Assembly (NCBI GenBank): GCA_030390025.1 | Contig: CM059431.1 | Coordinates: 158,970,001 to 159,034,000 of the forward strand | Reading direction: 5' to 3' | From: Squalus acanthias | Lineage: Eukaryota | Length of the DNA: 64,000 bases | Shown: positions 18,001-59,706 of the stretch, in pieces | How positions within the stretch are numbered: position 1 is the first letter of the stretch | How the letters are laid out: every line of letters starts with the position of its first letter | Position numbers and translations under genes: made by a program | Notes under the pieces: model-generated | Told to the model about the DNA's origin: nothing | The model's database searches: none | The model's input: the letters and a program-made list of their open reading frames with translations, nothing else

Positions 18001-18665
18001 AGTAATATTCTCAAAATTCAGAGATTCCCCAAAACACGAAGACAAACCCTAAGGAAAAAGACTTTGGACTCCTTTCTAGCTATTACAGGGTGGTGAAGTT
18101 CATTGTGCCTAACCGGAGGACCTGTTGAGCAAAAAACAAGATTTGGTACTTTTCAAACATGTCTGGGCTTGTAAGGGAGAAAAAGCTGTGAAGGAACGTG
18201 GGTTCAACCTCTGTAAAAACAGTTTGGGTATTGGAGCTAATCGGAACTGTCTGGGGAACCGCATGATCTCGTTGGGAGTTTAAATCGGCCCCTATCAGAC
18301 ATTAGCATCCTAAAAATAAGCCCGAGGAAAACCAGTCTCCACCCCAAAGTTACAGAGCTCATTAAGACATGCATAAAACAGATTACTTCGGCATACCCTA
18401 TACAAATCATAGGCCCAGCCAAGAAAACCCATAACATAGGAACAATCAAACTCCGATTAAGTGGCACATCAACGGGATGGGGCCATCCTGGAACCACTTC
18501 ACACCTTAACAAACCAGTGACAGTTGACGAGCCCGCCAAAACTAACAAAGACCGAGACCTGATTTGGCGCGCAGATAAGGAACCTTCAATGCGTATTATT
18601 GAAGGCCCGTTCTCAACCTGAAAAAGAAGAAGAGGACGGAAGAACAAGAAGACATCGACGGAGGC

Positions 18666-24083: not shown

Positions 24084-24911
24084 GAGGCATTCTCCGCAAC
24101 ACAGTTCTAAAAACATCACCGTTCAGCGTTTCCGTGTCCAGCCAGAAGTTCGACAGCTCGAAGGCCAGACCATGCAACAAAGTAGGCCGACACGTGAAGA
24201 AACCAGTATGATCGCCTCAGTGACCATCGGACACCTCGCGGCAACAAGGCCCTCACGAAAGAACCAACCAAACACCAAGTATCAATATTTGGGCCACCGC
24301 GGCCAAAGAAAACCAACTCGAAGAAAACCGAAGAACCGCAAAATTTCCATTCTACAATCTACTCCTGACTTATCCCTGGGTAAGATTTTCCCTTAAAAAA
24401 CTCTAAACCAACTTCTAAACCAAAGAAAAGTTTGTACTCACCTGATAAATCCAATACGCACCCTACCGCATCAGCGGACTCGCGAAGACTGACCAGATAC
24501 GCAGTTGAAGTCCTCTACCGTGTATGGGGTACCGCAAACACCAACCGACATATAGAGTGAACCCCAAAACCGCGAACTAACCTAACTATCAAGGATTCTG
24601 GTGGGTATCATCACTGGTCCTCTGTAGTCCAGCCTAGCTAGTAAAGTGTGATTGGGAGGGGTGTCGTACTCTTTTAATGTTATTTACCTCGCTTGTACCG
24701 AAGTGTTCCCCACTTTTAGTGTGTTAAGAGTGTTTGTGTTGTGTTTTACTCTCTTGAATAAAGATCAAAGTTCTTGCATCAAAAGCAGTTGTCTGCTGCA
24801 CTTTTTATCACAACCCCCAAATAAGTCCAAGGTGTAAAAGCAAGGGTGTGGGAGCGATTCGAACCGCTCAGAAGTCAGAGGTGAAGTTGACACAAACCAA
24901 AACACCCTACA

Positions 24912-29297: not shown

Positions 29298-32200
29298 CTC
29301 ATTTTGTGTGGAGCCAAGAAACAGCAAGGGGCAGAAAACATTCGTGAGAGTTGTATATAGGCCCCCAAACAGTAGGTGTAATGTAGGGCAGAGTATAAAT
29401 CAGGAAATTAGAGGCGCATGTAAAAAGGGCAATACAGTGATCATGGGGAGACTATAATCTACATATAGACTGGACAAACCAAATTTGCAGTAATAGTGTG
29501 CAGGATGAATTCATGGAATGTATGCAAGATTGTTTTCTAGATCAGTATGTTGAGGAACCAAATAGGGAACAGGCTATTTTAGATCTAATATTGTGTATCG
29601 AGTAAGTGTTAATTAATAACCGTGTAGTAAAGAGGCATTTAGGGAGCAGTAAACATAATTTGATAGAATTGTATACTGATTTGGAAAGTGATTTATTTAA
29701 GTCCGAAACTAGGCTCTAAAATCGAAACAAATCAAACTACGTAGATATGAGGGGCGAGTTGCAAAGGAAGACAGGGAAGCTACATTAAAAGGCATGATGG
29801 TAGACAAGCAATGGCTACCATTTAAAGAATTAATACATAATTTACTACAAATAAACCTTGCTTTATGGCATAAAAACCCCACAGAAAATGTGATCCAAAC
29901 GCGGCTAACAAGAGAAGTTAAAGTTAGTATTAGATCAAACGAAGAGGCTTATAATCTTGACAAAATGAGTGGCAAGTCTGAGGATTGGAAGGATTTTAAA
30001 ATTAAGTAAAGGAGGACCAACAAATTGATGAAGAAAGGGAAAATAGAATATGAGAGCAAACTAGCGTGAGACATAAAAATAGACTCTAAAAGCTTCCATA
30101 GCTATGTAAAAAGGCAAAGATTAGCGAAAGTAAATGTTCGTTACTTACAGGCTGAGACAGGAGAAATTATAATGGGGAATAAGGAAATGGCAGAGAAATT
30201 AAACAAATACTTTGTGTCTGTCCACACAGAATAAGATGCTATATTGGTCTGGGTACTGTGCAATGAGAAGGGACTAATTAGTAATCTTGTTGTACGGGGA
30301 CCCTTGGGTCAGAGCGATCATAACATGATCGATTTCTCACTCGAAATGGAGAGCGAAGAAATTGACTCAGAGACTAAGGTCGTGAATTTAAACAAGGGGA
30401 ATTATGATGCCTTTAGACGGGAACTGAGTAGGTCTGATTGGACAACGTTCCTGGGAGCACTGTAGGTAGATAAACAATGGCAAGCATTTAAAGATAGAAT
30501 GACAAAATTGCAAAAATTGTTTATACCAATCTGGCATAAAAGGAAATCTAAAAAGGTGACTCAACCGTGGATAACAGGGGGAATTAGAGACAGCATAAAA
30601 TCCAAAGATAGGGCGTATAAAATAGCCAAAAAAAAGCGCCAGAGCGGAAGATTGGGAACAGTTTAAGATAGAGCAAAGGAGGACAAAGGGCTTAATCAAG
30701 AGGGGCAAAATAGCTTACGAAAGCAAGCTGGCGGAAAATATAAAAACTAACTCCAAAAGCTTTTATAAGTATATCAAGAGGAAAAGACTGGTGAAAACCA
30801 AAGTTGGTCCATTGCAGTCAGATACGGGGGAATATATAACGGGAAATAAGGAAATGGCAGACCAACTAAATGCATACTTTGGGTCAGTCTTTACGAAGGA
30901 AGACACAAAAAACCTCCCTGGGATATCGGGAAAAATGGGGACATTGGCAAAGGAGGAACTGACGCAAATCAATATCTCTAAGGATATGGTGTTAAGGAAG
31001 CTAAAGGGATTGAAGGCGGACAAATCCCCAGGGCCTGATAACATGCATCCTAGGGTACTGAAGGAGGTGGCCCTAGAGATAGCGGATGCACTAAGTATGA
31101 TTTTTCAGAATTCATTAGACTCGGGTACAGTGCCCATGGATTGGAGGGTAGCTAACGTTACCCCACTATTCAAAAAGGGGGGTAGGGAAAAAGCAGGTAA
31201 TTACAGACCTGTAAGCCTTACATCAGTTGTGGGCAAAATGCTGGAGTCCATCATTAAGGATGAAATAGCGGAGCACTTAGCAAATGGGGACAGGATAGGA
31301 CAGAGTCAACATGGATTTACAAAGTGTAAATCGTGCTTGACTAATCTATTGGAATTTTTTGAGGGAGTAACTGGTAAAATAGATGGGGGAGAGCCAGTAG
31401 ATGTGGTGTACCTGGACTTCCAAAAGGCCTTCGATAAGGTCCCACATAAAACATTAGCATGCAAAATTGAAGCTCATGGGATAAAGGGGAAAGTATTGAC
31501 GTGGATAGAGAACTGGCTGTCAGATAGAAAACAGAGAGTTGGAATAAACGGCACATTTTCTGAATGGCAGGCAGTAACAAGTGGGGTACCACAGCGATCT
31601 GTCCTGGGTCCCCAGCTGTTCACAATTTACATTAATGACCTGGATCAGGGAGTCGGATGCAGCATTTCCAAATTTGCAGACGACACTAAACTAGGAGGGG
31701 GGGTGGGCTCAGAGGAGGAGACCAGGAAGCTCCAGAGCGATTTGGACAGACTGGGTGATTGGGCGGATAAATGGCAGATGCACTATAATGTGGACAAGTG
31801 CGAAGTTATCCACCTTGGGTGCAGGAACGGGAGGGCAAATTATTATTCAAATGGCAATAAATTGGGAGAGGGGGAAGTACAGAGAGACCTGGGTGTTCTT
31901 GTACACCAGTCACTGAAGGCGAGCATGCAGGTGCAACATGCGGTCAAGAAGGCAAACGGTATGCTGGCCTTCATAGCAAAAGGGTTGGAATACAGGAACA
32001 GGGATACCTTGCTGCAGCTGTACAGGGCACTGGTGAGACCACACCTCGAGTACTGTGTACAGTTTTGGTCGCCTCATCTGAGGAAAGATGTTCTTGCCAT
32101 GGAGGGGGTGCAGCGGCGATTCACCAGGCTGATACCAGGAATGGCGGGATTGACCTATGAGGAGAGACTATGTAGTTTCGGGATGTACACACTGGAGTTT

Positions 32201-34298
32201 AGAAGATTGAGAAGGGACCTCATAGAAGTGTATAAAATTCTGACAGGTCTAGACAGACTGGATGCAGAAGGAATGTTTCCCTTGGCGAGTGAGAACAGAA
32301 CTAGAGGACATAATTAAAGGATAAGGGCTAAACCATTTAGGACAGAAATGAGGGGGAATTTCTTCACTCAGAGGGTGGTGAACCTGTGGAACTCATTGCC
32401 ACAGAGGGCAGTGTACGCCAGCTCATTAAATATATTTAAGAGGGAATTAGATATATTTCTACAGGCAAAAGGGGTTAAGGTTTAGGGAGAGAAGGCGGGG
32501 ACGGGATACTGAATTGGAGGATTAGCCATGATCTCATTAAATGGCGGAGCAGCCTCGAAGGGCCGGATGGCCTACTCCTGCTCCTATCTTCTATGTATCT
32601 ATGTATGTATGCAAAAAACTTGCCGGAAATAATGGAGAACCAAGGCGCTAACGAGAATGAGAAACTGAAAGACATTAGTATGAGTAAAACATTAGAATTG
32701 GAGATATTAATGGTACTGAAAGCCAATAAATCCCCGTGATCTGATGGCCTACATCCTTGGTTTTTGAAAGAATTGGCTATAGAAATAGTGGATGCATTGG
32801 TTGTCATTTTCCAAAATTCCATAGATTGTGGAACGGTTCCCGCGGTTTGAAAGGGTGTAAATGTAACCCCACTATTTAAGAAAGGAGGGAAAAAGAAAAC
32901 GGGGAACTACGGACCAGTTAGCCTAACATCAGTGGTGGAGAAAATGCGACAATCTATTATTAAGGATGTAGTAACAGAGCACTTAGAACATAATAATAGG
33001 ATTGGGCAGACTCAACACGGACTTATGAAAGGGAAATCGTGTTTGTCATATATGTTGAGTTTTTGAGATTGTAACGAGCAGAATAGAAAAGGGGGTATCA
33101 GTTGATGTGGTGTATTTGAATTTTCGGAAGGCATTCGATAAGGTGCCCGACAAGTGGTTATTAAACAAAATTAGGGCTCATGGGATTGGGGGTAATATAC
33201 TAGCATGGATTGAGGATTGGTTAATGGATAGAAAAAAGAGGGTACGAATAAACGGATCTATTTCGGGTTGGCAGGCTGTAACTAGTGGGGAACCGCAACG
33301 ATCAGTGCTTGAGCCTCAGCTATTCACCATCTATATCTATGATTTAGATGAGGGGACCAAATGTAATATATCCACGTTTGCTGATGATAAAAAGCTGGCT
33401 TGGAATGTAATTTGTGAGGAGGATGCAAGGAGGCTTCAACAGGATATAGACAGGCTAAGTGAGTGTGTAAGAACATAGCAAATGGAATATAATGTGGAGA
33501 AATGTGAAGTTATCCACTTTGGTCGGAAAAATACAAAGCAGAGTATTTTTTAAATGATGAGAGATTGGGAAATGATGTTCAGAGGGACCTGGGTGTCCTT
33601 GTACACGAATCACTGAAAGTTAACATGCAGGTACAGCAAGCAATTAGGAAAGATAATTACATGTTGGCCTTTATCACAAGAGGATTGAAGTATAAGAGTA
33701 AAGACGTCTTACTGCAATTATATAGGGCCCTGGTGAGACCACACCTGGAGTATTGTGTACAGTTTTGGTCTCATTACCTTAGGAAGTATATACGTGGCGT
33801 AGAGGGAGTGCAACGAAGGTTCACCAGACTGGTTCCTGGGATGGGGGATTGTCCGATGAGGAGAGATTGAGTAGACTAGGCCTATATTCTCTTCAGCTTA
33901 TAAGAATGAGAGGTGACCTCATTGAAACATACAATATTCGTACAGGGCTTGACACGGTAGATGCTGGGATAATGTTTCCCCTGGCTGGGGAGTCTAGAAC
34001 CAGGGGTCACAGTCTCAGAATAAGGGGTCCGCCATTTAGGACTGAGAGGAGGAGACATTTCTTCACTCAGAGGGTGGTGATTGTTTCGAATTCTCCTACT
34101 CAGAGGGCTGTGGATGCTCAGTGAATAATTATATTCCAGACAGAGATCGATATATATTTGAATATTAAGGGGATCAAGCGATATGGGGATATTGCAGGAA
34201 AGTGGAGATGAGGTAGAAGATCACCCATGATTTTATTGAATGGCAGAGCAGACTCGAGGAGCTAAATGCCTTACTCCTGCTCCTATTTCTTATGTCTT
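29298..34298 (+). mobile_element. 5'-truncated old CR1 (family c), ORF2 from mid-APE to the 3' tail
   Basis: VVYRPPNS, FRKAFDKV, FADD, 3' tail ctcctgctcctatttcttatg; flanked by a ~80-bp direct repeat. Confidence 0.9.
30240..32607 (+). mobile_element. 5'-truncated CR1 family a nested in the family c CR1
   Basis: Near-identical to 6402-8765; ORF 30791-32317; atgc on both flanks. Confidence 0.95.
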
Positions 34299-43578: not shown

Positions 43579-43794
43579 CATAGAAATATAGAAGATAGGA
43601 GCAGGAGCAGGCCATTCAGTCCCTTGAGCCTGCTCCGCCATTCAATGAGATCATGGCTGATCTTCCAAATTCAGCACCCTGTCCCTGCCTTCTTCCCATA
43701 TCGCTTGATCACTTTAGCTTTAAGAAATATATCCAACTCCTTCTTAAATATATTTAATGAATTGGCCTCTACTGCCTTCTGTGGTAGAGAATTC

Positions 43795-45417
43795 TGTAAA
43801 GCTTCGCAATGATCGCGATTCAAAATAACAAGAGAGAAGCAGATTCGTTTGATCAGTTTTATTAAACGAAATGCTGTCCTGATAATAAAGGACACAGAAG
43901 CCTGTAAAATGGCCGCCGCGCATCTTGGCAAAATCTTCCTGAAATACAGTGGGCAGACAAGATGGCGTCGAATAAACATTCAGTATAAGATTGGATCATA
44001 CTCGGTAAACATGATAAAGACAGGATGCAACCCGTTTGCATTTGGAACAATAGCAAAGATATAAGTGCTGGAATCGTTCTCCTATGCACAGCAAGGACCA
44101 TTCTACTGGGCAATTGAAGGCCCATCCAGACACATCAATGCACAAATACCCCCACGGCTCTACAATGAGAGAGACATTGACGGGTGATTAAGTCAGTATT
44201 CGGGAAGGCCCCAAAACCAGTCAGGGAGACTCCTGGCTGGGTCAACAATGTGTAAAACATTAACGGATAGTTGGCTAGTTTCAGCAGCTACCGAAAGCCG
44301 TTAAAGAGAAGAATTGCCCCATGCTGGGAGTTTTGTGCGCCAATATTACACAAAGGACAAACATTAAGATTTGAGCGGGAGATAAGGGGACACAGCACTA
44401 TAACTATAGAGAACAAATGTCCATCGCTCTCTTTTTTTTCTCTTATCTCTCGGCGGACCCTTGCTGAAGCTCTTCCTTGGAGCTGGACTACTGTGTTTCT
44501 CTGGACTTTGTTGACTCTTGACTCTTAGCCGTACTGGTCGGTTATTCGAATGTTGGGTGGAGCTCAATCGGAACGAGCCGCCCCGACAAGGGCAAGTATC
44601 AGGGTACACCATCCCGAGTGTCGGTAAACGGTGTCTGGACCCGAAGGCCCGAAGAGACGAGACGAGAAGAAGACGAGAAGAATCCGCGTGCCGCCACAGT
44701 CAGTAAACCCCGATGGCGGCCGAAAATATAAATAAAAAACTCTTCTTTGAGTTCGAACGACTAGAACCTGTATCGAGCACAGGAAGACTCTTCTTTGAAT
44801 TTTACAAACGTTCCGAGTTCTGCCGAGTTCTTCATGACAACAGAGAGTCTGGCCTGCTTTTCGCAGCAGCGAAAGTAAACAAGTGGGGTGCAGAAGCCCT
44901 TCCAAACACATGACAGTCAGGCGCTGCAGCGAAACGAGCTGAGTGCCTCACTTTAAAAATCTCCGAAGTAACACGATTGGTGAGCATGTTTTCCGATCCT
45001 ACAAATCTAGACGAAGTGTAGGTATTGTTAAGGGAGTGTGGTTTTTAATAAGGTTAAGGTATAATGTGTTTCCCTTTTTACGATGTGCCGTGTGTTCTTC
45101 ATTTCCATAGACCAAGCTTTATGAATGTATGTATACTTGTACTCTCGTTGATTTGCGCCTATGACATGTACTTCTTGATTTTGGACGCAATGCAATAAAG
45201 ATTTCCATTTCCTACTATTCAACCGGGTCTATTTGAGTTTTCTCTGCATTACTGCTCCCTGCACCTAAGTCCAGTGTTAGAACCGTAAGGGCGAGTGGGT
45301 CGAACCACTCACAGGTACTTATTGTAAAAAGGCTGGCCGGAGACTAGAGCAAGCAGTAGTATTAGGCAACGAAGACCTAACCTCGCACCAGCACCGTCTG
45401 AGACACGCCCCCTTACA
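43795..45417 (+). repeat. ERV-B 5' LTR (1623 bp)
   Basis: Colinear with 56959-58567; AATAAA at 45194-45199. Confidence 0.95.
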
Positions 45418-45422
45418 GAAAA

Positions 45423-45442
45423 TGGCGACCGCGGCAGGACTC
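45423..45442 (+). promoter_or_regulatory. ERV-B primer-binding site, tRNA-Arg(UCG)
   Basis: tggcgaccgcggcaggactc is the reverse complement of GAGUCCUGCCGCGGUCG-CCA, the 3' end of vertebrate tRNA-Arg(UCG) as recalled; 5-nt spacer after the LTR. Confidence 0.88.
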
Positions 45443-45493
45443 TAGCAGCAGGAGAGTAATGTTTTAGAACCTGGTTTGAATAGGCGAAATGTG

Positions 45494-47243
45494 ATGGATG
45501 AGAGGGGAGCCGACTATGTGTTTGGTAAGGTTAACTTAACCAAAAAGTGGATAAGTGACCTACTGATGGATAAGTGTCCGCTAGACGCCGCCATCAAATG
45601 GACAGGCAGTAAAGAGCATAAGAAGTCGATAGAGAAAGCGGTCTGGCTGATGTACTACAAGAAGCAAGTCCAACTTTCGGGTCAGGTCATTGCAGCACAG
45701 GCAGCTCAGATCAGGGAATTGGAAGTTGAGATGGAGGAAAGGTCATGGGAGGACAGAAACTCATTGCATCATTGAATGCGTTACATCAGGAACGCCAAAT
45801 AGTAGCCAACCACCATGAGGCTAAAATTGATTACCTGGAATGTCAGGTCACGGAAGCGAAATTAAACGAGGGTAGGATTAGAGAACCGCATATCCGCTTG
45901 GTTAGCCAAATAAAAGCCCAGGAAGAGAGCTTGAAGGGAGTTAGGGCGGCATATAAGATGGCCCTCGAGGATAGGCACGAGGGAGCCGACCACAGTGTTC
46001 GCCAGAAGGAGATAGGGAACCAAAGAGAGGCCCTCAATAAGGCAAACGGCTTGGTGTGTCTCATCAGCCCGTCAGCGAGCCAGCCACAGGTGGGTAGGGA
46101 ATTCCCAAAATCCCTACCAGAAAAAGCAGAAGAGGTATCTGCCACTATGCCCTCCGCGCCACCCAACTATTCGGCAACCTGGGTAAGGGAGGAAGTGGTG
46201 GAAATAGAGAAAAAGTTTCCCGAGGTAGGACAATCCCCGGAGGTAGAGTCGAGACCGGGACCGATGTGTCCGCTCCGAGGTCACAAGAGAGGCCCGAATG
46301 CAGACAATGGGGAAGAGGAGGATAACCTGAACCAACTTGTATTGCCCCACAGCTCACAACAGCTGAGAGCAATGATTAGCCATGTACGGAAGCTGTCCGA
46401 GTCAGATGACCCTTCCGTACATTTTAGAGAAGTAGAACAGACCGCAGCAATTAATGGCTACGACGATGAGGAAAAGACCAAAATGTTGCTGTTCTCTTTA
46501 GATAGCTCGATCCTTCAGTGTCTCTCCGACGAGAGCAAGAAGGGAAATAAAACCTATGGGGAGTTACGGGACGAGGTCCTAGAAGTGTTAGGGGCGGATG
46601 ACGAAGGTCCGTTCGTCAGATTCTGTCATACCGTACAGATGGAGGGAGAAACCCCGCGGGTTTTCGCCGACAGACTGTGGCCAGTATACCAGCGTAGCTG
46701 CCCAGGTGCGCCAGGGCGCAACTACCTGGACGGTGCCGGAAAAGCTCATTGGCTCAGGTGCATGGTAGCCAACAGTTTGCCAGCCGTCAGGGAGCAGGCC
46801 AGAGCGTGGTTTGATCCCACTAACCCCGCCACAACAGAGGAGGCTGTCCTAAATCGACTCACCATAGGGTATCGGAACACTAGGAGCACGGGAGCGCGTC
46901 CCCTTAAGGGAAAGGTTGATGAGGCAAGGACCGCAGCTCCGGCTCAGAAAGAGTGGCATCAGGAGGGAAATTGCGCCCCACAAACCAGTGGTGTTTGTTA
47001 CGGGTGCGGGAAGACAGGTCACTGGCGTAAAAACTGCAGGAATCCTTGGAAGGACTCCAGGGACAAAGTTCCGCAGTCCGAACCCAAGCACCTGTCTCTG
47101 AGAAAGGTGCTGGTGTGTCTATCCATCCCGATGCGATAAAATCAATTTTGGGAGCCATGCGGTCCCTTATGATTTCGCAAGGAAGGGTGGCAGTCGCTAC
47201 CGGCCCCACAGATGCCACAACCCCGTCCACCAGTACCCAATCA
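45494..47243 (+). pseudogene. gag: ERV-B gag, two frameshifts
   Basis: ORFs 45476-45775, 45745-47139 and 47046-47429; coiled-coil N-terminus, MHR-like QMEGETPRVFADRLW, CYGCGKTGHWRKNC. Confidence 0.9.
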
Positions 47244-50200
47244 CTAAATCCCGCACAGCCCGTTTACCTGTGTCTGCTCAGCTATGATGCGTGGAAAAGA
47301 CCCCTGGTAGAGATGGAGGTAGAGAAGCAGAAGGGTAGTTACTTGTTGGACACGGGAGCTTCATGCACCGTGATCCATAAGGATAGCCCCTTTGACTCAC
47401 CACTGTCTACCAAGGTCCATTCACATTAGCAGGGTTCACGGGAAAGAGCAGGCTGGTGCGTTCTCCATTCCGCTCTCCATTCATTTAGGAGCACTCCACA
47501 GCACATGGAAGTGCATACTGATGAAATGGCAAGAGGGGGGTGGCAGAGGTATCCTCGGATCGGATCTCCTAGCGGAACACGGGATCCTCGTGGACCTTAG
47601 GAATCACTGTCTCTGGGGAGCCAAGGGTGGAAAAGGCAAGGTAGTTGTAATCCCAGGGAAGGAAGGAAAAGGGGCCCTGTGTACCATGAAGCCATCCGGA
47701 GGTTACGACTTCGGGCTTATGATCGCGGATGTCCCAACGGACATGCAAACGTACGTGTCAGATAATATGCATGCGTTTGCAACCCACAAGTACGATTGTG
47801 GGAGGGTTATCGGGTTTGAGGTCAGCATAGACGGGGATCCCATGACCCGGCCCCAAAGCAGTATAACTTCCCCAAAGAAGCAGAACCCGACATTGAGACA
47901 GCAATGTCCTCATTAGGGCAGCAGGGCGTGTTGAGGCCGATAGCCACACACGTGAACTCCCCATTATGGCCGGTAAGGAAGCCGGATAATTCGTGGAGGG
48001 CCACGCCGGACTACAGAGTCCTTAACAGTAACATCCCCGCCTGCGCTACCACTGTAGCAGCAGTTGCTGACCTAATAGGGAGTATCCCAGCGTCCGCGAT
48101 CACGTTCACGGTGCTTGATATTTCGAACGGTTTTTGGTCCATCCCGCTGCGGCGGGAGGACAAGTACAAGTTTGCCTTTACTTTCAAAGGACAACAGTAA
48201 ACGTGGAACTGTTTGCCACAGGGATTCCACAACAGCCCCAGTATTTTCCATCAGTGTATGGAAGGAAGTTTAAAGGTGTTTAGTCAGCCCAATCAGATAG
48301 TGCAGTACGTGGATGATTTGCTCCTGTTCACGGACTCAAGGGAGGAGCATGGACCAATGCTCGCCGAGTTATAGGAGCTGCTAGGGAGAAAGGGTTTTAA
48401 AGTTAACCCTAAGAAAGCACGTATCGGTCAGCAGAAAGCTAAAATTCCTGGTCTGATCATTCGCGCTGGGGAAAGAGCCATAGATAAGGCTAGGAGGGAG
48501 TCGGTGCAGGAGTTACCGATTCCCAACACCATAACTGGTATGAGGTCCTTTCTGGGACTGACCGGTTACTGTAGAGACTTCATCGAGGACTATGCGGCCA
48601 CAGCAACTCCGCTGCTCCGACTCCTCCATAAGGGAGTGGAGTGGTCTTGGGACGAGGGTTGTCAGGCAGCATTCGAGAAGTTAAAAAGGGATCTGCAGAC
48701 CGCGCCAGCTTTAGGGGTGATAGATGGGGGGGAGGAGTTTTTCCTGGAGGTAGCTGCCAGCGGGGACAGCTTGAGCGCTGTGCTGCTCCAAGAGCGACCC
48801 GGCAAGCTGAGGCCGGTTGTCTATTCGTCCAGGGTGTTAACGGATGTGGAAAGGAGTTTTTGCAACTGCGAAAGGCATCTTTTAGCCACGCATTGGGCTG
48901 TGAAAAGATCAGCGATCTTCACAGGGCTCTCTCCCATCACTCTCCTCATCCATCACACGCCAACCAAGATGCTTCTGGATGGGAGGAATCAGGATGGGAC
49001 CGTAAGCTGCGCTCGTATTGCGCGCTTGACCCTTCTCCTTTCATAGAAACATAGAAACATAGAATCTAGGAGCAGGAGTAGGCCATTCGGCCCGTCGAGC
49101 CTGCTCCACCATTCAATACGATCATGGCTGATCATTCAAATCCAGTACCCTGTCCCTGCTTTAATCCCCACAGTACACATATCCCACCCTAGCCCCGTAA
49201 CCCCACGTATTTAATTCCCCCTAACATATCCCATCCTATCCCCCTCCCCTCCTCCTAACACTAAGGGTCAATTTATCATAGCCAAATCAACCTAACCCGC
49301 ACATTTTTGGACTGTGGGAGGAAACCGGAGCACCCGGAGGAAACCCACGCAGACACGGGGAGAATGTGCAAACTCCACACAGACAGTCACCCAGATGGAT
49401 CTTAGAGTGAGAGGTCTTTGCGTGCCCAGGCTCGCGGCCAACTTGGTATACCCCGGAACAGCCCACCAGTGTTCGGTGGAAGGGGTGTGGGAGGTCAACA
49501 TAGGCTTGCGGGCCGGGATACATCCCACAGGTCGCGAGATTTATGTTGATGGTTCCAACACAGTGTCCGCTGGCGAACGATCTACAGGGTGTGGAGTTTA
49601 TGACCCTGCGGCAAACCTTGCCTTGGCAATTAAACTCCCCAGCACGATGAGCGAGCAGCAGGCTTAGCTGTCTGCGGTGGCGTACGTCGTTACCCACCCA
49701 GAAATCTTCCCTACCCCATACACGATTTGTTCGGACAGTATGTTTACGTGCATTTCGTGTATGGAATACCTGGCCATTTGGTCCCGCCGTGGCTACACCT
49801 CCGCAGACGGGCGGCCTTTAACGGTGAAGCCCTTGCTGGAAAAGATCCCAGCAGCAGTGGGGGAGGAAGGGGAGATTTTCATCCACAAGGTGAAGGCTCA
49901 CTCCTCCACAGAACCCCGCAGAGAGGGCAACCAGCATGCGGATGCGCTATCCAGGGAAGGTGCCCGTAACTGCATTTTCTGGGACACCTATGGACCCGGA
50001 CCCTTGGCAACGATCCAAGGCAGGGAAGGGAATCCCGGGAACACCAGGCTAGCACTGTCCCTAGACCTTAAGACCGTCCAGAACCAGGAACCCGCCCTAA
50101 AAGCAATTCTCAGAACGATTACTGAGGGCAAGTCGGTAGAGGGCCCGTACAGTACGGCAACCCTGTCCGTTAAAGAAGGCATGCTTTTCCGCGAGGAATA

Positions 50201-51901
50201 GTGGATTGTGCTGCAGCAGCACAGGAGGGAATTCCTCCAGTTGGCTCATGAGGGGCCGGGGCAGGACACCCCGGGCCTGAGGTTACCTGGCAACGGGTAG
50301 AGCAGGCGGGATGGTGTCCGGGACTCAGGGAGCAGGTCCGCGAGTTCTGTGCAAGCTGTCTTGTGTGCGCTGCAAACAACCCAGACCCCCAGAAAAGGAA
50401 AGTGCTATTGGGGCACATCAGGAGGGTGGAGGGACCATGGCAGACGATACAGATCGATTACATAGGGCCCCTGCCCAACACCCAGGGAGGCTACAAATAC
50501 TGCCTCGTCCTGGTGGATGTGCTTTCCAATTGGGTAGAAGCCTTTCCCTGTAGAACAGCTACGGCGCTGGGTACTGCCAAGATCTTGGTCCGGGAAGTGT
50601 TCTCGCGGTGGGGACTCCCCCGTTTCGTGGAGTCAGACCAAGGGAGTCATTTCACCGGCCAGGTGATGCAGAGCACCCTCACTCTTTTGGGCCTTGAAGG
50701 GAAGTGGCACGTAGCGCACAATCCCCAGTCATCAGGGATTGTTCAACGCATGAACCGGACCCTCAAGGAAAAACTGAGGAAAGAGACTATGAATATGCCC
50801 CAAAAATGGGCGGAGGTTCTGCCTCTAGTCCTCATGGGGATTCGGGCCAGCCAGTCGAAGAGTACGGGGTATTGCCTGTACGAGGTGATGACTGGGAGGA
50901 TCATGCGAACCCCCACCCATTTACTAGACCCGGTGCTCACTGAGGATCAGCTCCAAGAGGTGAAACGGGACAAATTTGTCCAGACCCTCTTGGAGCACCT
51001 GAAGCAGGATTACGAGCAGGCGGCTGGGAACATGGGAAGACAGCAACAGGGCAATCGCCTGTTGCTGGAACCCCGTAAGAAGCAGGAGTGGGAAGTCGGA
51101 AATCAGGTCATGTTTAGGAACTATGCCAGAGTAGGGAGTTTGGAACCACTGTATATGGGACCCTACAGTATTGTAGATAAGGCGAGTCCCATGGTGTACG
51201 CAATAAAGGTATCCCGGCGCACGAAATGGTTCCACATTAACCAGTGCAAGTTGTATAAACCGGGTGCACATGGGTCAACCACAGGGGCCAAACCTGCGAG
51301 TGGGGACTCTCAGCCCCGTGTAGAACCGAAGGGCACACAGGCCGGTAAAGCAGCCTGCTTGAGGGGAGAGGACATTCTTGAACAGTGTAGGATCTTTTCT
51401 TGATGTTGGGATTCAGATGAGGAAGAGCTCGGAGAGCTCGACCAAGGTAGTGACCCAGTCGGAGACGTGGTGGGTTCGGAGGACGGAGGTTCCGCCCTCG
51501 ACCCAAGCATAGGGGAGATAGGGATTGCGAGTGGAGTTCCACTTACTGGAGAGACAAGTAGGGTGGAGTCGGAAACTGCAGATCCCGAGCCCAGGGGGGC
51601 GGAGCCAGGGGAGACAGATGCGGCGGCTGTGGTAGGACCACAGGCCGTGACGGTGGAAGTCTCGGTTCCCGGTCCGTCGGTCCTGGAAATCTTGCCCAAG
51701 GTAGCCCTCCGCAGGTCGAGTCGGACACCCCAGCCCAGGAAGCTGTGGTCAAATCCCTCGTACACCTGCAGGCGTAAGTTCAAGGCAGCCCAGGGAGATC
51801 CCAGTCCCAGCGCAGCGGCGACACGCTGCGGCAGATCAAAGGAAGGGGTCAGTGACGCCCAGCCACTGGGAAAAGCTCGTGGCAGCCTTCGCAGAATTTA
51901 G
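47244..51901 (+). pseudogene. pol: ERV-B pro-pol: protease, RT, tether, RNase H, integrase with GPY module and acidic tail; interrupted by a V-SINE
   Basis: LLDTGAS..GILGSDLL; QYVDDLL at about 48303; EIYVDGS..CSDS..KVKAH..GNQHAD; IDYIGPLP..ESDQGSHF; YMGPY; 51467-51901 is in frame with 50363-51403 across one TGA. Confidence 0.93.
49043..49391 (-). mobile_element. 5'-truncated V-SINE (HE1-like) with a CR1 family b 3' tail
   Basis: Reverse strand V-domain tgtgtggagtttgcacattctccccgtgtctgcgtgggtttcctccgggtgctccggtttcctcccacagtcc, then the CR1 stem-loop and (tttctatg)n. Confidence 0.9.
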
Positions 51902-52170
51902 GTAGGCCGCCCTGGGAACGGGCGGCGCTGTACAGTTAAGTTTAGGTTAAGTTGAAGTTTATAGTGTTTTAAGTTTGTTAAGATTGTAGTTTAATTTTAT
52001 AAGTAAATGTTGAAATGATGGGAGTTAGTGATAGGCATAGTTAAGGTCTATCCAGTATACATGTCTTTGTACGTGAGACGAGGTAAAGTGACCCGCTCAC
52101 CCTTCACAAAAGCCAGAGACTCTTGGGAGGCTGGCAACATCATTTTATCTGATCACAGGAACCAGGAGAT

Positions 52171-55100
52171 ATGGAAAGGATTCTGATAGTGCTTGCAACG
52201 ATCGGATATGGATTTACCTATCGTGGCCTCACCAAGGATGTCGTTGTGTTCGGTTGCACCGGGGACATGGGCCCCATCGCGACGGATGGGACCGGGGAAC
52301 GAAAGGCTGAGGAAACCGCCACTTATTTCCACAAGGGAAGGTGGCCGGGATGGCTGGGAACGAATTCGACGGAATACTCCAGCGCATCAGGGTTTGCATA
52401 CAAAAAGACTTCTTTACTGTGTCCCAGTGTGAGGATCGTTGCACCCAGAATCAGTGTCACCGTCGGCAAAAGGATTTGTTTGACGTGCAATGGGAAGGTC
52501 CCATTGAGCCGATGGTGGTGGTTACGGAAGTTAAGCAAGACTATGAGAAATTCCTCGGTCGAGTGGGAGCGATTGGGTAACAATACCCATCGGACAATTA
52601 CAGGGACTAACGGACAATTGAAAGTCTGTTGGGACAAATGGTGGGAACCAGATGAGGGAATATATGTTTGTATGTGGGGATCGAAGTACGTTTGCCCCAA
52701 GGGTATATCCATATTTTTCCTACAACAGTGGCAGGATGACGGGAAAGGGATGAGGTGGGATGTCAGCACCAATGGGTTTGGAGCTCCATTCTCCCTGATC
52801 CCGGTAAACGCCATTGAACTCATCACGCGCCCATGCAAGTCTCCGCCCACGATTCCGGTGGCATTGGCTCAGGAGGAAGGGTGCCCTAAAACCACTAAGG
52901 GGCCCGGGAATGGTCTGGTACTGGTGCCAACAGATCAGATACTATATCAAGGGGTACATTACGCGGTGGCTTCGGTGATTCTAAATCTCACCGAGGTGCA
53001 TTTACCAGAGTGGTGTCCCAAAGAAATGGAACAATTGTACCAGGTCCTGTTAACAAACATGTTCAGGTAATTTTATGAGATTGATTTTGCAGAGGTTGAC
53101 AAAACAAGCTTATACACCACACCACACGAAGTGTTGGGTCAGGTGGGGAGAGAAAGTAGGGCTGTTGTGAACGATGTGTTCACTGCTTTTAATACGGGAA
53201 CATCTGTGGTCAACGCTCTAGACAATGTGGAGCTGCAGACCCAGATCAACGGTTTAAAATCATCCTCACAAACGAGAACAAGGTAGTAGGGTCTGAGTTA
53301 CATGAGGACCAGCCCATGACACTACACATAAAAGAGATTATAGCAGAGCTGGAGAAGCATGCGAGAACGGTAAATGCCCTGATCAGGGAAGATCGAAATG
53401 CATCCGATCAAGCTGCGCAGAACGAGCTTTGCGTACTACACGGGGCGTGGTTACTGGGCGAGGGCCGCAGTAATTTGGAGGATTTAAAACAAGGTTTGGT
53501 CCCGTCCTGGATAAGTAACAAACACCTGCAAGCGCTCCACCCTTTTCAGAACGCATTAAGCCCGTGCCATCTCAGGCTAGCCTCAGAGGCATACCCAGTC
53601 CCAGTGGACTGCGGACGGTCAAATCACACTATCATGGGGATAGTAGTACGGATGCCGGTGTTGGGAGACACAGCAAAGCCCGCCCCGGTGTACCGGGTGG
53701 AGAACATTGGTGTCATTCAGGGGGGAGCCCACATTCGCTAAGCAGCGGTCCCACCTTACGTCATCAGCTGGGAGCAAACGATGACAGGTACCGACCTTTC
53801 GGGTTGTCGTGGCCGGGGAGCACACATCATACTTTGTCCACAGCACTTGAATGCCTTTTTAACACCACAATGAGGGTTCAGAACGGCTGGCGCGAAGCCC
53901 ATGAATTGCACCATTGAAGGAATGACACAAGATCATGTGCCGCCACAGGTGGCATACATAGGGGGTGGAACGTATTGCGTTACCACTGCAGCGCAAATCT
54001 AAAAAGGTGACTCAACCGTGGATAACAGGGGAAATTAGAGACAGCATAAAATCCAAAGATAGGGCGTATAAAATAGCCAAAAAAAGCGCCAGAGCGGAAG
54101 ATTGGGAACAGTTTAAGATAGAGCAAAGGAGGACAAAGGGCTTAATCAAGAGGGGCAAAATAGCTTACGAAAGCAAGCTGGCGGAAAATAAAAAAACTAA
54201 CTCCAAAAGCTTTTATAAGTATATCAAGAGGAAAAGACTGGTGAAAACCAAAGTTGGCCCATTGCAGTCAGATACGGGGGAATATATAACGGGATATAAA
54301 GAAATGGCAGACCAACTAAATGCATACTTTGGGTCAGTCTTTACGAAGGAAGACACAAAAAACCTCCCTGGGATATCGGGAAAAATAGGGACATTTGCAA
54401 AGGAGGAACTGACGCAAGTCAATATCTCTAAGGATATGGTGTTAAGGAAGCTAAAGGGATTGAAGGCGGACAAATCCCCAGGGCCTGATAACATGCATCC
54501 TCGGGTGCTGTAGGAGGTGGCCCTAGAGATAGCGGATGCACTAAGTATGATTTTTCAGAATTCATTAGACTCGGGAACAGTGCCCATGGATTGGAGGGTA
54601 GCTAACGTTACCCCACTATTCAAAAAGGGGGGTAGGGAAAAAGCAGGTAATTACAGACCTGTAAGCCTTACATCAGTTGTGGGCAAAATGCTGGAGTCCA
54701 TCATTAAGGATGAAATAGCGGAGCACTTAGCAAATGGGGACAGGATAGGACAGAGTCAACATGGATTTACAAAGGGTAAATCGTGCTTGACTAATCTATT
54801 GCAATTTTTTGAGGGAGTAACTGGTAAAATAGATGGGGGAGAGCCAGTAGATGTGGTGTACCTGGACTTCCAAAAGGCCTTCGATAAGGTCCCACATAAA
54901 AGATTAGCAGGGAAAATTGAAGCTCATGGGATAAAGGAGAAAGTATTGACGTGGATAGAGAACTGGCTGTCAGATAGAAAACAGAGAGTTGGAATAAACG
55001 ACTCATTTTCTGAATGGCAGGCAGTAACAAGTGGGTTACCACAGGGATCTGTCCTGGGTCCCCAGCTGTTCACAATTTACATTAATGACCTGGATCAGGG

Positions 55101-56565
55101 AGTCGGATGCAGCATTTCCAAATTTGCAGACGACACTAAACTAGGAGGGGTGGTGGGCTCAGAGGAGGAGACCAGGAAGCTCCAGAGCGATTTGGACAGA
55201 CTGGGTGATTGGGCGGATAAATGGCAGATGCACTATAATGTGGACAAGTGCGAAGTTATCCACCTTGGGTGCAGGAACGGGAGGGCAAATTATTATTTAA
55301 ATGGCAATAAATTGGGAGAGGGGGAAGTACAGAGAGACCTGGGTGTTCTTGTACACCAGTCACTGAAGGCGAGCATGCAGGTGCAACAGGCGATCAAGAA
55401 GGCAAACGGTATGCTGGCCTTCATAGCAAAAGGGTTGGAATACAGGAACAGGGATACCTTGCTGCAGCTGTACAGGGCACTGGTGAGACCACACCTCGAG
55501 TACTGTGTACAGTTTTGGTCGCCTCATCTGAGGAAAGATGTTCTTGCCATGGAGGGGGTGCAGCGGCGATTCACCAGGCTGATACCAGGAATGGCGGGAT
55601 TGACCTATGAGGAGAGACTATGTAGTTTAGGGATGTACACACTGGAGTTTAGAAGATTGAGAGGGGACCTCATAGAAGTGTATAAAATTCTGACAGGTCT
55701 AGACAGACTAGATGCAGAAGGAATGTTTCCCTTGGCGGGTGAGAACAGAACTAGAGGACATAATTTAAGTTAAGGGCTAAACCATTTAGGACAGAAATGA
55801 GGGGGAATGTCTTCACTCAGAGGGTGGTGAACCTGTGGAACTCATTGCCACAGAGGGCAGTGTACGCCAGCTCATTAAATATATTTAAGAGGGAATTAGA
55901 TATATTTCTACAGGCAAAAGGGGTTAAGGGTTACGGAGAGAAGGCGGGGACGGGATACGGAATTGGAGGATCAGCCATGATCTCATTAAATGGCGGAGCA
56001 GGCTCGAAGGGCCGGATGGCCTACTCCTGCTCCTATCTTCTATGTATCTATGTATGTACCAGCATAGACAGCACAGCCGGTGTCCGGTGAGTGTCAGCAG
56101 ATTCTGTTTTAAACCCAGGGCTGAAGTTCAAGTGGCACAACAGCGAATTATCCCGATCCCTGAACCATCCACTGTTCACCTCACTGTAAAAGAGAATTAC
56201 ACAGACTTGCAGCGAATCGTCGCGCATTTCGGATACATCATTCCCCCTCTCCCTGAACACCTCACCAAGATTTTAAAAGCCGTCATGGTATCACAGAAAC
56301 ATTTTTACACCCTGGAACAAAAGACTGTATAGATTGGGCAGAGATATTAGATTTAGTAATCCCACCGTGGTGGGATCTGTTCACTAATATTGAAGTCCCA
56401 TCATGGATCAGGATAGCCTCCCACATTTTGGTAGTGTGTCAAGTCGTAATTGTAGTGTACCTAATGGTCGTACACTGCAAAAGAGGCAAACGCCTCACGA
56501 GTCAGGAGAACACAGAGGAGTGGAGAGAACATTATGTGCGCGTGAACGAGGAAAGTACCGCGTAA
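52171..56565 (+). pseudogene. env: ERV-B env: signal peptide, Ig-like domain, F-like fusogen, TM; interrupted by CR1 at 53995-56057
   Basis: MERILIVLATIGYG; ISVTVGKRICLTC..WWW..DEGIYVC; RESR/AVVNDVFTAFNTGTSVVNALD; PPWWD..ILVVCQVVIVVYLMVV; stop at 56563-56565; acceptor-like cag at 52156-52158. Confidence 0.88.
53995..56057 (+). mobile_element. 5'-truncated CR1 family a inside ERV-B env
   Basis: Near-identical to 6705-8765; ORF 54517-55773. Confidence 0.95.
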
Positions 56566-56946
56566 ACGGCCAGGATGACGCCGCGCGATTTTACCATGTG
56601 TGTTTTTGTAATTGTTGTTAGTTATGAATATGTGTAACTAAGTTCGGAACTTTTGTATTTTTAAAATAGTTGGTTTGATTATTTTTTCCTTTTATAATAA
56701 AACATTCATATACAGGTGGTGCGAGAGGCATCGGACTTTTGCACCTGGAAGGCGTATACGCAGTGTAAGTTTAAAGGCAATACTGCCTACGATTTGTCCA
56801 AGATAGACCTTGTGTTTTCTCTGGGAAATGAGGACTGCATGGAGGCCATAGATAGTTTAAGAACCGGGAGTGTTTGGATGTGGAGAATCGGGATAATTGT
56901 GCTCACCACCTTTTTAATTGTTATGATAAGCGGAGTTATTCGCATC

Positions 56947-56958
56947 AACAGGAGGGAC
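56947..56958 (+). promoter_or_regulatory. ERV-B polypurine tract
   Basis: aacaggagggac abutting the TGT of the 3' LTR. Confidence 0.75.
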
Positions 56959-58567
56959 TGTAAAGTTTCGCAATTATCACGATTCAAAATAACAAGAGAG
57001 AAGCAGATTCGTTTGATCAGCTTTATTAAACGAAATGCTGTCCTGATAATAAAGGACACAGAAGCCTGTAAAATGGCCGCCGCGCATCGTGGCTGAAGCT
57101 TCCAGAAATACAGTGCGCAGACAAGATGGCGTTGAATAAACATTCAGTATAAGATTGGATCATGCTCGGTAAACACTGATAAAGACAGAATGCAACCCGT
57201 TTGCATTTGGAACAATAGCAAAGATATAAGTGCTGGAATCGTTTTCCTATGCACAGTAAGGACCATTGTACTGGGCAATTGAATGCCCATCCAGACACAT
57301 CAATACACAAATACTCCCACGGCTCTACAATGAGAGTGAAATTGACGGGTGATTAAATCAGTATTCGGGGAGGCCCCAAAACCAGTCAGGGAGACTCCTG
57401 GCTGGGTCAACAATGGGGAAAACATTAACGGATAGTTGGCCAGTTTCAGGTGCTACCGAAACCCGTTAAAGAGAAGAATCGCCCCATGGTGGGAGTTTTG
57501 TGCGCCAATATTACACAAAGGACAAACATTAAGATTTGAGCGGGAGATAAGGGGACACAGCACTATAACTATAGATAACAATTGTCCATCGCTCTCTTTT
57601 TTTCTCTTATCTCTCGGCGGACCCTTGCTGAAGCTCTTCCTTGGAACTGGACTTTTGTGTTTCTCTGGACTTTGTTGACTCTTGACTCTTAGCCGTACTG
57701 GTCGGTTATTCGAATTTTGGGTGGAGCTCAATCGGAACGAGACGCCCCAACAAGGGCAAGTAACGGGGTACACCATCCCGAGTGTCGGTAAACGGTGTCT
57801 GGACCCGGAGGCCCGAAGAGACGAGACGAGAAGAAGACGAGAAGAATCCACGTGCCGCCACGGTCAGTAAACCCCGACCGCGCCCGAAAATATAAATAAA
57901 AAACTCTTCTTTGAGTTCTACCGACTACAACCTGTATCGAGCACAGGAAGACTCTTCTTTGAATTTTACAAACGTTCCGAGTTCTGCCGAGTTCCTCATG
58001 ACAACAGAGAGCCTGGCCTGCTTTTCGCAGCAGCGAAAGTAAACAAGTGGGGTGCAGAAGCCCTTCCAAACACGTGACAGTCAGGCGCTGCAGCGAAACG
58101 AGCTGAGTGCCTCACTTTAAAAATCTCAGAAGTAACACGAGTGGTGAGCATGTTTTCCGATCCTACAAATCTAGACGTAGTGTAGGTATTGTTAAGGGAG
58201 GTAGGTTTTTAATAAGGTTAAGGTATAATGTGTTCCCGTTTTTAGGATGTGCCGTGTGTTCATCATTTCCATAGACCAAGCTTTATGAATGTATGTATAG
58301 TTTTACTCTCGTTGATTTGCGCCTATGACATGTACTTCATGAATTTGGACGCTATGCAATAAAGATTTCCATTTCGTACTATTTGAGTTTTCTCTCCATT
58401 ACTGCTCCCTGCACCTAAGTCCATTGTTAGAACAGTAAGGGCGAGTGGGTCGAACCACTCGCAAGTGCTTATTGCAAAAAGGCTGGCCGGAGACGAGAGA
58501 AAGCAATAGTATTAGGCAACGAAGGCCTAACCTCGCACCAGCACCGTCTGAGACACGCCCCCTTACA
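56959..58567 (+). repeat. ERV-B 3' LTR (1609 bp)
   Basis: Roughly 5-7% diverged from the 5' LTR by eye; AATAAA at 58358-58363. Confidence 0.95.
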
Positions 58568-58711
58568 ATTCCACAGGTTCACCACTCCCTGGGTGAAGAA
58601 ATTCCTCCTCATCTCAGTCCAAAATGGCTTTTCCCTTATCCTTAGACTGTGACCTCTAGTTTTGGACTCCCCGGCCATCGGGAACATCCTTCCTGCATCT
58701 AGTCTGTCTAG

Positions 58712-59706
58712 TACATAGATACTTAGATACATAGAAGATAGGAGCAGGAGTAGGCCATCCGGCCCTTCGAGCCTGCTCCGCCATTTAATGAGATCATGGC
58801 TGATCCTCCAATTCAGTATCCCGTCCCCGCCTTCTCTCCGTAACCCTTAACCCCTTTTGCCTGTAGAAATATATCTAATTCCCTCTTAAATATATTTAAT
58901 GAGCTGGCGTACACTGCCCTCTGTGGCAATGAGTTCCACAGGTTCACCACCCTCTGAGTGAAGAAATTCCCCCTCATTTCTGTCCTAAATGGTTTAGCCC
59001 TTATCCTTAAATTATGTCCTCTAGTTCTGTTCTCACCCGCCAAGGGAAACATTCCTTCTGCATCTAGTCTGTCTAGACCTGTCAGAATTTTATGCACTTC
59101 TATGAGGTCCCCTCTCAATCTTCTAAACTCCAGTGTGTACATACCTAAACTACATAATCTCTCCTCATAGGTCAATCCCGCCATTCCTGGTATCAGCCTG
59201 GTGAATCGCCGCTGCACCCCCTCCATGGCAAGAACATCTTTCCTCAGATGAGGCGACCAAAACTGTACACAGTACTCGAGGTGTGGTGTCGCCAGTGCCC
59301 TGTACAGCTGCAGCAAGGTATCCCTGTTCCTGTATTCCAACCCTTTTGCTATGAAGGCCAGCATACCGTTTGCCTTCTTGACCGCCTGTTGCACCTGCAT
59401 GCTCGCCTTCAGTGACTGGTGTACAAGAACACCCAGGTCTCTCTGTACTTCCCCCTCTCCCAATTTATTGCCATTTAAATAATAATTTGCCCTCCCGTTC
59501 CTGCACCCAAGGTGGATAACTTCGCACTTGTCCACATTATAGTGCATCTGCCATTTATCCGCCCAATCACCCAGTCTGTCCAAATCGCTCTGGAGCTTCC
59601 TGGTCTCCTCCTCTGAGCCCACCCCCCCTCCTAGTTTAGTGTCGTCTGCAAATTTAGAAATGCTGCATCCGACTCCCTGACCCAGGTCATGAATGTAAAT
59701 TGTGAA
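58712..59706 (-). mobile_element. 5'-truncated CR1 family a nested in the family b CR1
   Basis: ORF 58813-59721(-) near-identical to the other family a copies; tail at 58712. Confidence 0.95.

Follow-up and report, generated by a model that had tools for sequence, protein, structure and literature searches.

Endogenous retroviruses of Squalus acanthias with a Retroviridae-type reverse transcriptase, a Loki-like integrase and a predicted F-type envelope protein

Two proviruses in the window

We analyzed a stretch of 64,000 nucleotides from Squalus acanthias (contig CM059431.1, positions 158,970,001 to 159,034,000; hereafter the window), which carries two endogenous retroviruses (ERVs) on its forward strand, ERV-A (2615-24911) and ERV-B (43795-58567). 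An initial annotation, made from the sequence alone, had described them as two distinct proviruses of lokiretrovirus (Loki) type. Both are borne out as distinct proviruses: ERV-B has a pair of long terminal repeats (LTRs) and an ATTC target-site duplication, and ERV-A is present with LTRs that do not resemble those of ERV-B. By their reverse transcriptase (RT), their LTR-gag-pro-pol-env-LTR layout and their tether followed by an RNase H, ERV-A and ERV-B are members of the Retroviridae. Their integrase groups with that of Loki and their envelope protein (Env) is nearest to that of Loki. The affinity to Loki that had been proposed is thus absent from the RT and present in these two proteins, and lokiretroviruses in sharks do not hold as a headline claim.

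ERV-B is a genuine but broken provirus with gag, pro, pol and env between its LTRs. The 5’ LTR (43795-45417, 1623 bp), defined by comparing the window with itself, where a direct repeat spans 43794-45417 and 56958-58567, and the 3’ LTR (56959-58567, 1609 bp), which a short purine-rich tract precedes, both have TG...CA ends and are 95.0% identical across 1608 columns, with a Kimura two-parameter distance (K2P) of 0.052. The two copies of the 4-bp duplication ATTC lie at 43791-43794 and 58568-58571. In the self-comparison, the flanks of ERV-B match adjoining pieces of a single stretch of long interspersed nuclear element (LINE) elsewhere in the window, from which it follows that ERV-B was inserted into a CR1-type LINE. 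Five bases past the 5’ LTR starts a primer-binding site of 20 nt (45423-45442), missed in the initial annotation, that complements the 3’ end of the host tRNA-Arg(TCG) plus CCA. Elsewhere in this genome, tRNA-Arg(TCG) and tRNA-Ser(GCT) are carried by long tandem arrays that repeat every ~1623 bp (G000:C26, 39-42 Mb; L002-L004), and the genome as a whole has 422 perfect matches for the 3’ end of tRNA-Arg.

The internal genes, all on the forward strand, were defined by open reading frames (ORFs), Pfam matches and comparison with other copies. The gag gene (45446-47139; ORFs, Pfam) is split over two frames and has one CCHC knuckle (~46993-47040); from its sequence, the N-terminus of Gag is judged to form a coiled coil. 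The protease, with its DTG motif, and a spacer follow in a frameshifted region (47031-47819; ORFs, Pfam), and then the RT, with PQG and YVDD motifs, and the tether (47820-49042; Pfam, copy comparison), with two in-frame stops. A retroposon insertion of 347 bp (49043-49389), missing in the related copies L098, L099 and L103, separates the tether from the second RNase H (49390-50201; Pfam, copy comparison), which has one in-frame stop, and the integrase (50252-51403; Pfam, integrase trees) consists of H2C2, rve and an SH3-like tail. The order of the Pfam families is one zf-CCHC, retroviral protease, RVT_1, tether (PF17919, PF17917), RNase_H (PF00075), Integrase_H2C2 and rve. The tether with a second RNase H and the single CCHC had been recognized by the initial annotation, as had the long LTRs and the 4-bp duplication; the RT motif that it quoted, QYTWNCLPQGF, is whole only in ERV-A, an in-frame stop breaking the ERV-B motif.

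The env gene (52171-56565) comprises a signal peptide, a probable immunoglobulin (Ig)-like domain, a predicted F-type fusion body and a transmembrane segment, and it carries a stop, frameshifts and a CR1-type LINE of 2.06 kb (53995-56058, forward strand) that shares 98% identity with further copies elsewhere in the window. The damage in ERV-B as a whole includes stops in the RT, RNase H and env and frameshifts in gag, pro and env. The young CR1-type LINE family, with its 98% identical copies, is found in the window at 6400-8766, 13455-14171, 21170-22230, 30238-32606, 53995-56058 and 58719-59706, and four of these insertions lie inside ERV-A or ERV-B.

ERV-A belongs to a sister subfamily and is the older copy; LINE insertions have enlarged it, and its ends are approximate. 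A target-site duplication could be confirmed for ERV-B but not for ERV-A. Its 5’ LTR (~2615-4071), RT (~10862-11548), env (~15361-17707) and split 3’ LTR (~18001-18665 and ~24084-24911) lie on the forward strand, and its gene order is that of ERV-B. The LTRs of the two elements share no similarity longer than 12 bp. The K2P of the ERV-A LTRs (0.096-0.114) makes ERV-A about twice as old as ERV-B, in agreement with the difference in LTR sequence and age noted earlier; their RT end branches are alike (0.048 and 0.058).

Abundance and subfamilies in the genome

The 3.71-Gb genome holds many relatives of both elements. The ERV-A RT gave 117 scored matches with 81-100% identity among 15,239 candidates, and a 147-aa piece of the ERV-B Env gave 150 scored matches with 94-100% identity among 6,832 candidates. 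Of the latter, 148 are free of stops in the matched part, and many lie in long open frames. A 20-mer from the end of the ERV-B LTR occurs 397 times, and junctions between LTR end and primer site number 52 (controls, 0).

The subfamilies were compared at 20 sampled loci, from 16 of which an RT stretch was obtained. A-type and B-type copies share ~75% DNA identity and are split with a support of 100/100, which places the two proviruses in different subfamilies of one diversified, high-copy clade; the A-type loci (n = 10) contain at least three further sublineages. Repeated invasion by this clade, as the initial annotation proposed, is plausible, with diversification within the germ line as the alternative.

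A second pair of ERV-A (98% aa identity) and ERV-B (97% aa identity) lies ~335 kb downstream at a nearly equal spacing (L006; G000:C7, ~159.316-159.360 Mb), which points to a segmental duplication that carried both proviruses. Four of ten env-bearing B-type copies (among them L104-L106) are without an RT at the expected distance, and three of these have an LTR or the start of gag there, that is, they are shorter copies with internal deletions.

Reverse transcriptase

Reference sequences were fetched with short RT patterns and include foamy, gamma, delta, lenti, alpha/beta, epsilon and metavirus types, together with three Loki loci (L052-L054) and snakehead retrovirus (SnRV; L047), whose genome of 10,688 nt agrees with SnRV as published in both its length and its RT row. 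Group labels were assigned from motifs, lengths and the rows published in PMC7947760. The three Loki loci are contigs from a metagenome collection that have natural lokiretrovirus genes and closely match the published teleost Loki rows. A viral contig collection searched for relatives of our elements (queries P0030 and A1) yielded none, and the Loki pattern was not found there either. Redundant rows were removed by hand, leaving 55 of 99 in the RT tree; a second tree, of the RT plus tether, was built from 30 rows with a mixture model.

In the 55-row tree, a branch with a support of 100/99 unites ERV-A and ERV-B with all other retroviruses and leaves Loki outside; the mixture-model tree likewise places Loki outside the Retroviridae. 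A clade of ERV-A/B with the three natural Loki rows is rejected by the approximately unbiased (AU) test (p = 0.007), so the lokiretrovirus membership proposed by the initial annotation is contradicted by the RT, an outcome of the kind that this annotation had itself named as a refutation. The PxG motif points the same way, as it reads PFG in 24 of 24 published Loki rows and PQG in ERV-A/B and in the SnRV row. Exact matches to the canonical Loki RT pattern are absent from the 3.71-Gb genome, which is a limited test.

The identities of the ERV-A and ERV-B RTs are 44-51% with proteins of frog and coelacanth ERVs and of one further ERV, 42% with SnRV, the closest named virus by this measure, 29-36% with foamy viruses and 31-32% with Loki. 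RNase H similarity scores did not separate SnRV, foamy viruses and Loki. Membership in the Ty3/Gypsy elements (Metaviridae) is ruled out by the position of the RT within the Retroviridae in both trees and by a dual instead of a single RNase H. Odin retrotransposons are cnidarian elements with an RT sister to that of Loki; the RT of ERV-A/B lies within the Retroviridae.

Integrase

The integrase tree and its AU tests are based on 24 of 47 rows, and a further tree on 45 of 47 rows was rooted with two metaviruses. Compared with the frog/coelacanth-type proteins, the ERV-B integrase scores 241-276 bits; its scores are 222-223 for Loki, to which its identity is 36-38%, and 127 for SnRV. In the 24-row tree, a branch with a support of 99/97 separates ERV-A/B, Loki and the frog/coelacanth ERVs from SnRV, foamy, epsilon, gamma and class II viruses. 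A pairing of ERV-A/B with SnRV is rejected (p = 0.0001), a test that is weakened by the long branch of SnRV.

In the metavirus-rooted tree, in which SnRV and the foamy viruses are long branches, the root is placed on the branch of Loki and the group becomes a basal grade, with Loki branching first, followed by the frog/coelacanth ERVs, ERV-A/B and the rest. This order fits vertical descent. No report of an integrase link to Loki for ERVs of this kind was found in the literature searched.

Envelope protein

The natural open env frame of another copy encodes an RQRR site with a hydrophobic, helical region behind it, and also a body rich in cysteines and a transmembrane segment. Compared as single sequences, Env found no fusion family in Pfam and the Protein Data Bank (PDB), and BLASTP with Env or Gag gave no firm match to SnRV and Loki. 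The Atlas placed Env alongside clusters of Gypsy env, baculovirus F and PF00523 (0.94-0.96). Built on an alignment of 33 rows, an AlphaFold model of moderate quality (predicted local distance difference test, pLDDT, 65; predicted template modelling score, pTM, 0.39) retrieved with Foldseek the F proteins of respiratory syncytial virus and parainfluenza virus as top matches (best E = 1.5e-8, template modelling (TM)-score ~0.2), that of henipavirus, and also viral F-type glycoproteins that include the Envs of two walleye viruses, WDSV (dermal sarcoma virus) and WEHV-1 (epidermal hyperplasia virus 1). The alignment profile matches foamy Env structures as well (E = 5e-4).

Profile comparisons place Loki nearest. 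With HHalign, the Env profile reached a probability of 98% for Loki, 95% for WDSV, 93% for SnRV, 28% for foamy viruses and 2% for the murine leukemia virus (MLV) type. With HMMER, the family profile was run against 41 natural Envs and 410 shuffled sequences; the scores were 56 bits for Loki, 22 for WDSV, 7-22 for foamy viruses and 6 for SnRV, the gamma, delta and beta rows (n = 21) did not exceed 1.4, and the top shuffle scored 8.1. The Env identity to Loki is ~18%. The earlier observation that this Env is without orthoretroviral transmembrane (TM) subunit motifs agrees with these results, which show no gamma-type character.

The nearest named Env relatives come from Pristiophorus japonicus and Rhinoraja longicauda (61-82% identity), followed by Chiloscyllium, Mustelus and Heterodontus (27-32%) and the frogs Pelodytes and Xenopus (20-21%; P0046 and P0052); one relative is titled ‘Ig-like domain-containing’ in UniRef. 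These relatives make a shark or ray the likely host, in line with the cartilaginous fish that the initial annotation inferred from HE1-like and SacSINE1-like short interspersed elements. Runs of six coded organisms (A-F) contain 0.22-0.42 of the words sampled from 52170-53990 of the window, so several species appear to carry close env relatives. Three shark gene models (P0033, P0034 and P0058, named Niban 1-like, cadherin-related 5-like and fbxo15) contain fused Env fragments of this family, which are probably annotation artefacts or exonised inserts.

The Env of a walleye epsilonretrovirus (L086, genome of 12,708 nt, 5962-9648) matches the F-type profile with the HHalign probability and bit score given above for WDSV, and the SnRV Env (L047, 6131-9532) matches it weakly. 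A statement that the walleye-virus Env is of F type was not found in the literature searched; in its accessible text, a 2023 review describes this Env merely as ‘distinct’.

Comparison with known retroviruses

Statements from the literature here and below refer to the accessible text of the papers cited. According to Wang and Han (PMC7947760), lokiretroviruses have an RT that is sister to those of all other retroviruses; they also possess a tether and an Env related to F, and their integrase is close to CGIN1. The same authors found them in 0 of 6 chondrichthyan genomes, which agrees with the statement in the initial annotation that their reported hosts did not include this class. One of the six Loki-negative species, Chiloscyllium punctatum, carries a relative of the ERV-B Env. 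No lokiretrovirus in sharks is reported in the literature searched, including the accessible text of PMC12440569, PMC8922424, PMC13709493, PMC13524379, PMC9040795 and bioRxiv 2024.03.25.586437.

ERV-B has in common with Loki a dual RNase H, an F-type Env with an RXXR site, long LTRs and, in the 24-row tree, an integrase in one supported group. Unlike ERV-B, Loki has PFG instead of PQG, an RT outside the Retroviridae and a different primer site, and its Env is without the extra, probably Ig-like N-terminal region of the ERV-B Env; ERV-B also has a chondrichthyan host. The one natural Loki Gag scanned, that of L053, has no CCHC, whereas the ERV-B Gag has one. In the same locus, a long stretch between protease and RT puts the start of the RT at residue 677 of Pol, compared with 230 in SnRV and 223 in P0001, and the ERV-B spacer is short. 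The primer site begins TGGCGAG in SnRV and TGGTGCCCC in Loki; we take the corresponding tRNAs to be Arg and Met, respectively.

SnRV shares with ERV-B the PQG motif, the tether and RNase H, a Gag that has a coiled coil and one CCHC, a remote F-type similarity in Env and an Arg-type primer site. The set of features that the initial annotation took as diagnostic of Loki therefore fails to single it out, as the tether with RNase H, the coiled-coil Gag and the one CCHC occur in SnRV and the CCHC is absent from the Loki Gag scanned. SnRV differs in the length of its Env (1134 aa, against ~790 aa in the ERV-B clade, whose Env is closer to Loki); ERV-B has LTRs of 1.6 kb and no 3’ accessory ORF was seen in it, the RTs are not resolved as sisters and the integrase pairing is rejected. 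SnRV-like ERVs, including CmiERV lineage I, have been published from the elephant shark (PMC4422223), clade Huo spans vertebrates (PMC6001957), the SnRV clade has been described (PMC12193657), and 2,843 clade III RT loci are given for six chondrichthyan genomes (PMC11089739); a class III-type ERV in a shark is therefore not new.

Outside cartilaginous fish, the nearest sequences by RT (48-51%) and integrase (40-43%) are the frog and coelacanth ‘NYNRIN-like’ proteins P0002-P0004 and P0006, unclassified database proteins. The frog/coelacanth ERVs show the pattern of ERV-B, with an RT in the Retroviridae and an integrase with Loki, and their monophyly with the ERV-A/B clade lacks support (at best 65/92). 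In foamy viruses and walleye epsilonretroviruses, the Envs are detectably related to that of ERV-B, with RTs and integrases in separate clades. The foamy Env has been described as F-related (PMC11468914), and fish retroviruses are not named in the accessible text of the Viro3D survey of F proteins (PMC12583693).

Interpretation and alternatives

The reading that we favor, at somewhat better than even odds, is that the ERV-A/B clade is an early-branching retrovirus of class III grade, with its RT in the Retroviridae, that has kept an ancestral Loki-like integrase and F-type Env. Its reverse transcription would be primed on tRNA-Arg(UCG), as the primer site observed in ERV-B indicates, and integration left the 4-bp duplication. 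Entry into the cell would rely on an Env with the predicted fold of the paramyxovirus and pneumovirus F proteins, presumably cleaved by furin, and its N-terminal Ig-like domain would be the likely attachment module. The many copies with long open env frames suggest that the clade spread by reinfection. ERV-B itself later gained its stops, frameshifts, short retroposon and CR1 LINE.

Several results weigh against this reading. The AU test on the RT rejects neither ERV-A/B with SnRV (p = 0.24) nor ERV-A/B with foamy viruses (p = 0.074), and in both RT trees the clade sits in an unresolved basal polytomy within the Retroviridae, so that early branching is a proposed rather than a demonstrated position. 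On the integrase, ERV-A/B with Loki alone is also rejected (p = 0.004), and the group of ERV-A/B, Loki and frog/coelacanth ERVs has a support of just 75/68. Loki was represented in the trees by only two to three rows and the metaviruses by two, and Odin, ERV-L and fish foamy-like references were absent. As for Env, the model is weak by its pLDDT, pTM and TM-scores, PF00523 of Pfam gives no direct match, and the matches to an Ig-like domain are all below threshold. PMC9967133 treats the walleye-virus Env as a late acquisition, which means that an F-type Env may move by recombination.

Such a movement is central to a possible but clearly less probable explanation, an ancient recombinant in which the Arg primer site, CCHC Gag, protease and RT, making up the 5’ half, are of SnRV or class III type and the integrase and env were exchanged with the Loki line through one crossover near the RNase H, possibly in the direction of Loki. 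The Loki-like genes are indeed adjacent and the SnRV-like features all lie 5’ of them, an integrase tree rooted on class II nests Loki inside the group of ERV-A/B and the frog/coelacanth ERVs, and Wang and Han (PMC7947760) propose repeated swaps of RNase H and integrase. However, the order in the metavirus-rooted integrase tree agrees with that of the RT and needs no swap, and the low identities to Loki (36-38% in the integrase, ~18% in Env), together with the same pattern in the frog/coelacanth ERVs, would make any such event very old; the RNase H, near which the crossover would lie, is uninformative in its similarities. It is rather unlikely that ERV-A/B simply belong to clade Huo, the class III clade of SnRV, as for instance with CmiERV lineage I, and that slow evolution mimics a similarity to Loki. 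SnRV-like ERVs are known from the elephant shark, chondrichthyan clade III loci are numerous in the count cited above, and by RT no named virus is closer than SnRV, which shares the features listed for it, including a detectable F-type Env. Nevertheless, the RT trees give no sister relation to SnRV, the integrase rejects the pairing, with the reservation about its long branch, and the SnRV Env score of 6 bits lies within the shuffle range of the family profile.

Two further explanations seem very improbable. A true divergent lokiretrovirus, the first in cartilaginous fish, would account for the Env and integrase being nearest to Loki, for the long LTRs and for the dual RNase H, but it conflicts with the PQG motif, both RT trees and the AU test, as well as with the CCHC, a primer site unlike those of the natural Loki loci, the lack of a long protease-RT insert as in L053 and the missing exact genome matches to the canonical RT pattern. 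Equally improbable is a fish foamy-like ERV related to the Spumaretrovirinae: the RT test tolerates that pairing, the LTRs are long and the foamy Env is F-related, but foamy integrases fall outside the 99/97 group, the RT identity is 29-36% and the primer site is unlike that of the foamy locus L022, with fish foamy-like ERVs absent from the trees.

Implications for the origin of retroviral envelopes

We found no description in the open literature of a Retroviridae-type RT combined with a Loki-like integrase and Env; Repbase, Dfam and subscription papers were outside this search. In the accessible text of PMC7947760, Wang and Han leave open four scenarios for the origin of the retroviral Env and see no similarity between the Loki Env and retroviral Envs. 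A lineage that has a Retroviridae RT and an Env homologous to those of Loki, the walleye viruses, foamy viruses and, weakly, SnRV favors an ancestral Env of F type. With such a lineage, the Loki integrase can also be read more simply, as it may have been inherited and not swapped. The hundreds of copies in one genome provide ample material for testing the origin of Env.

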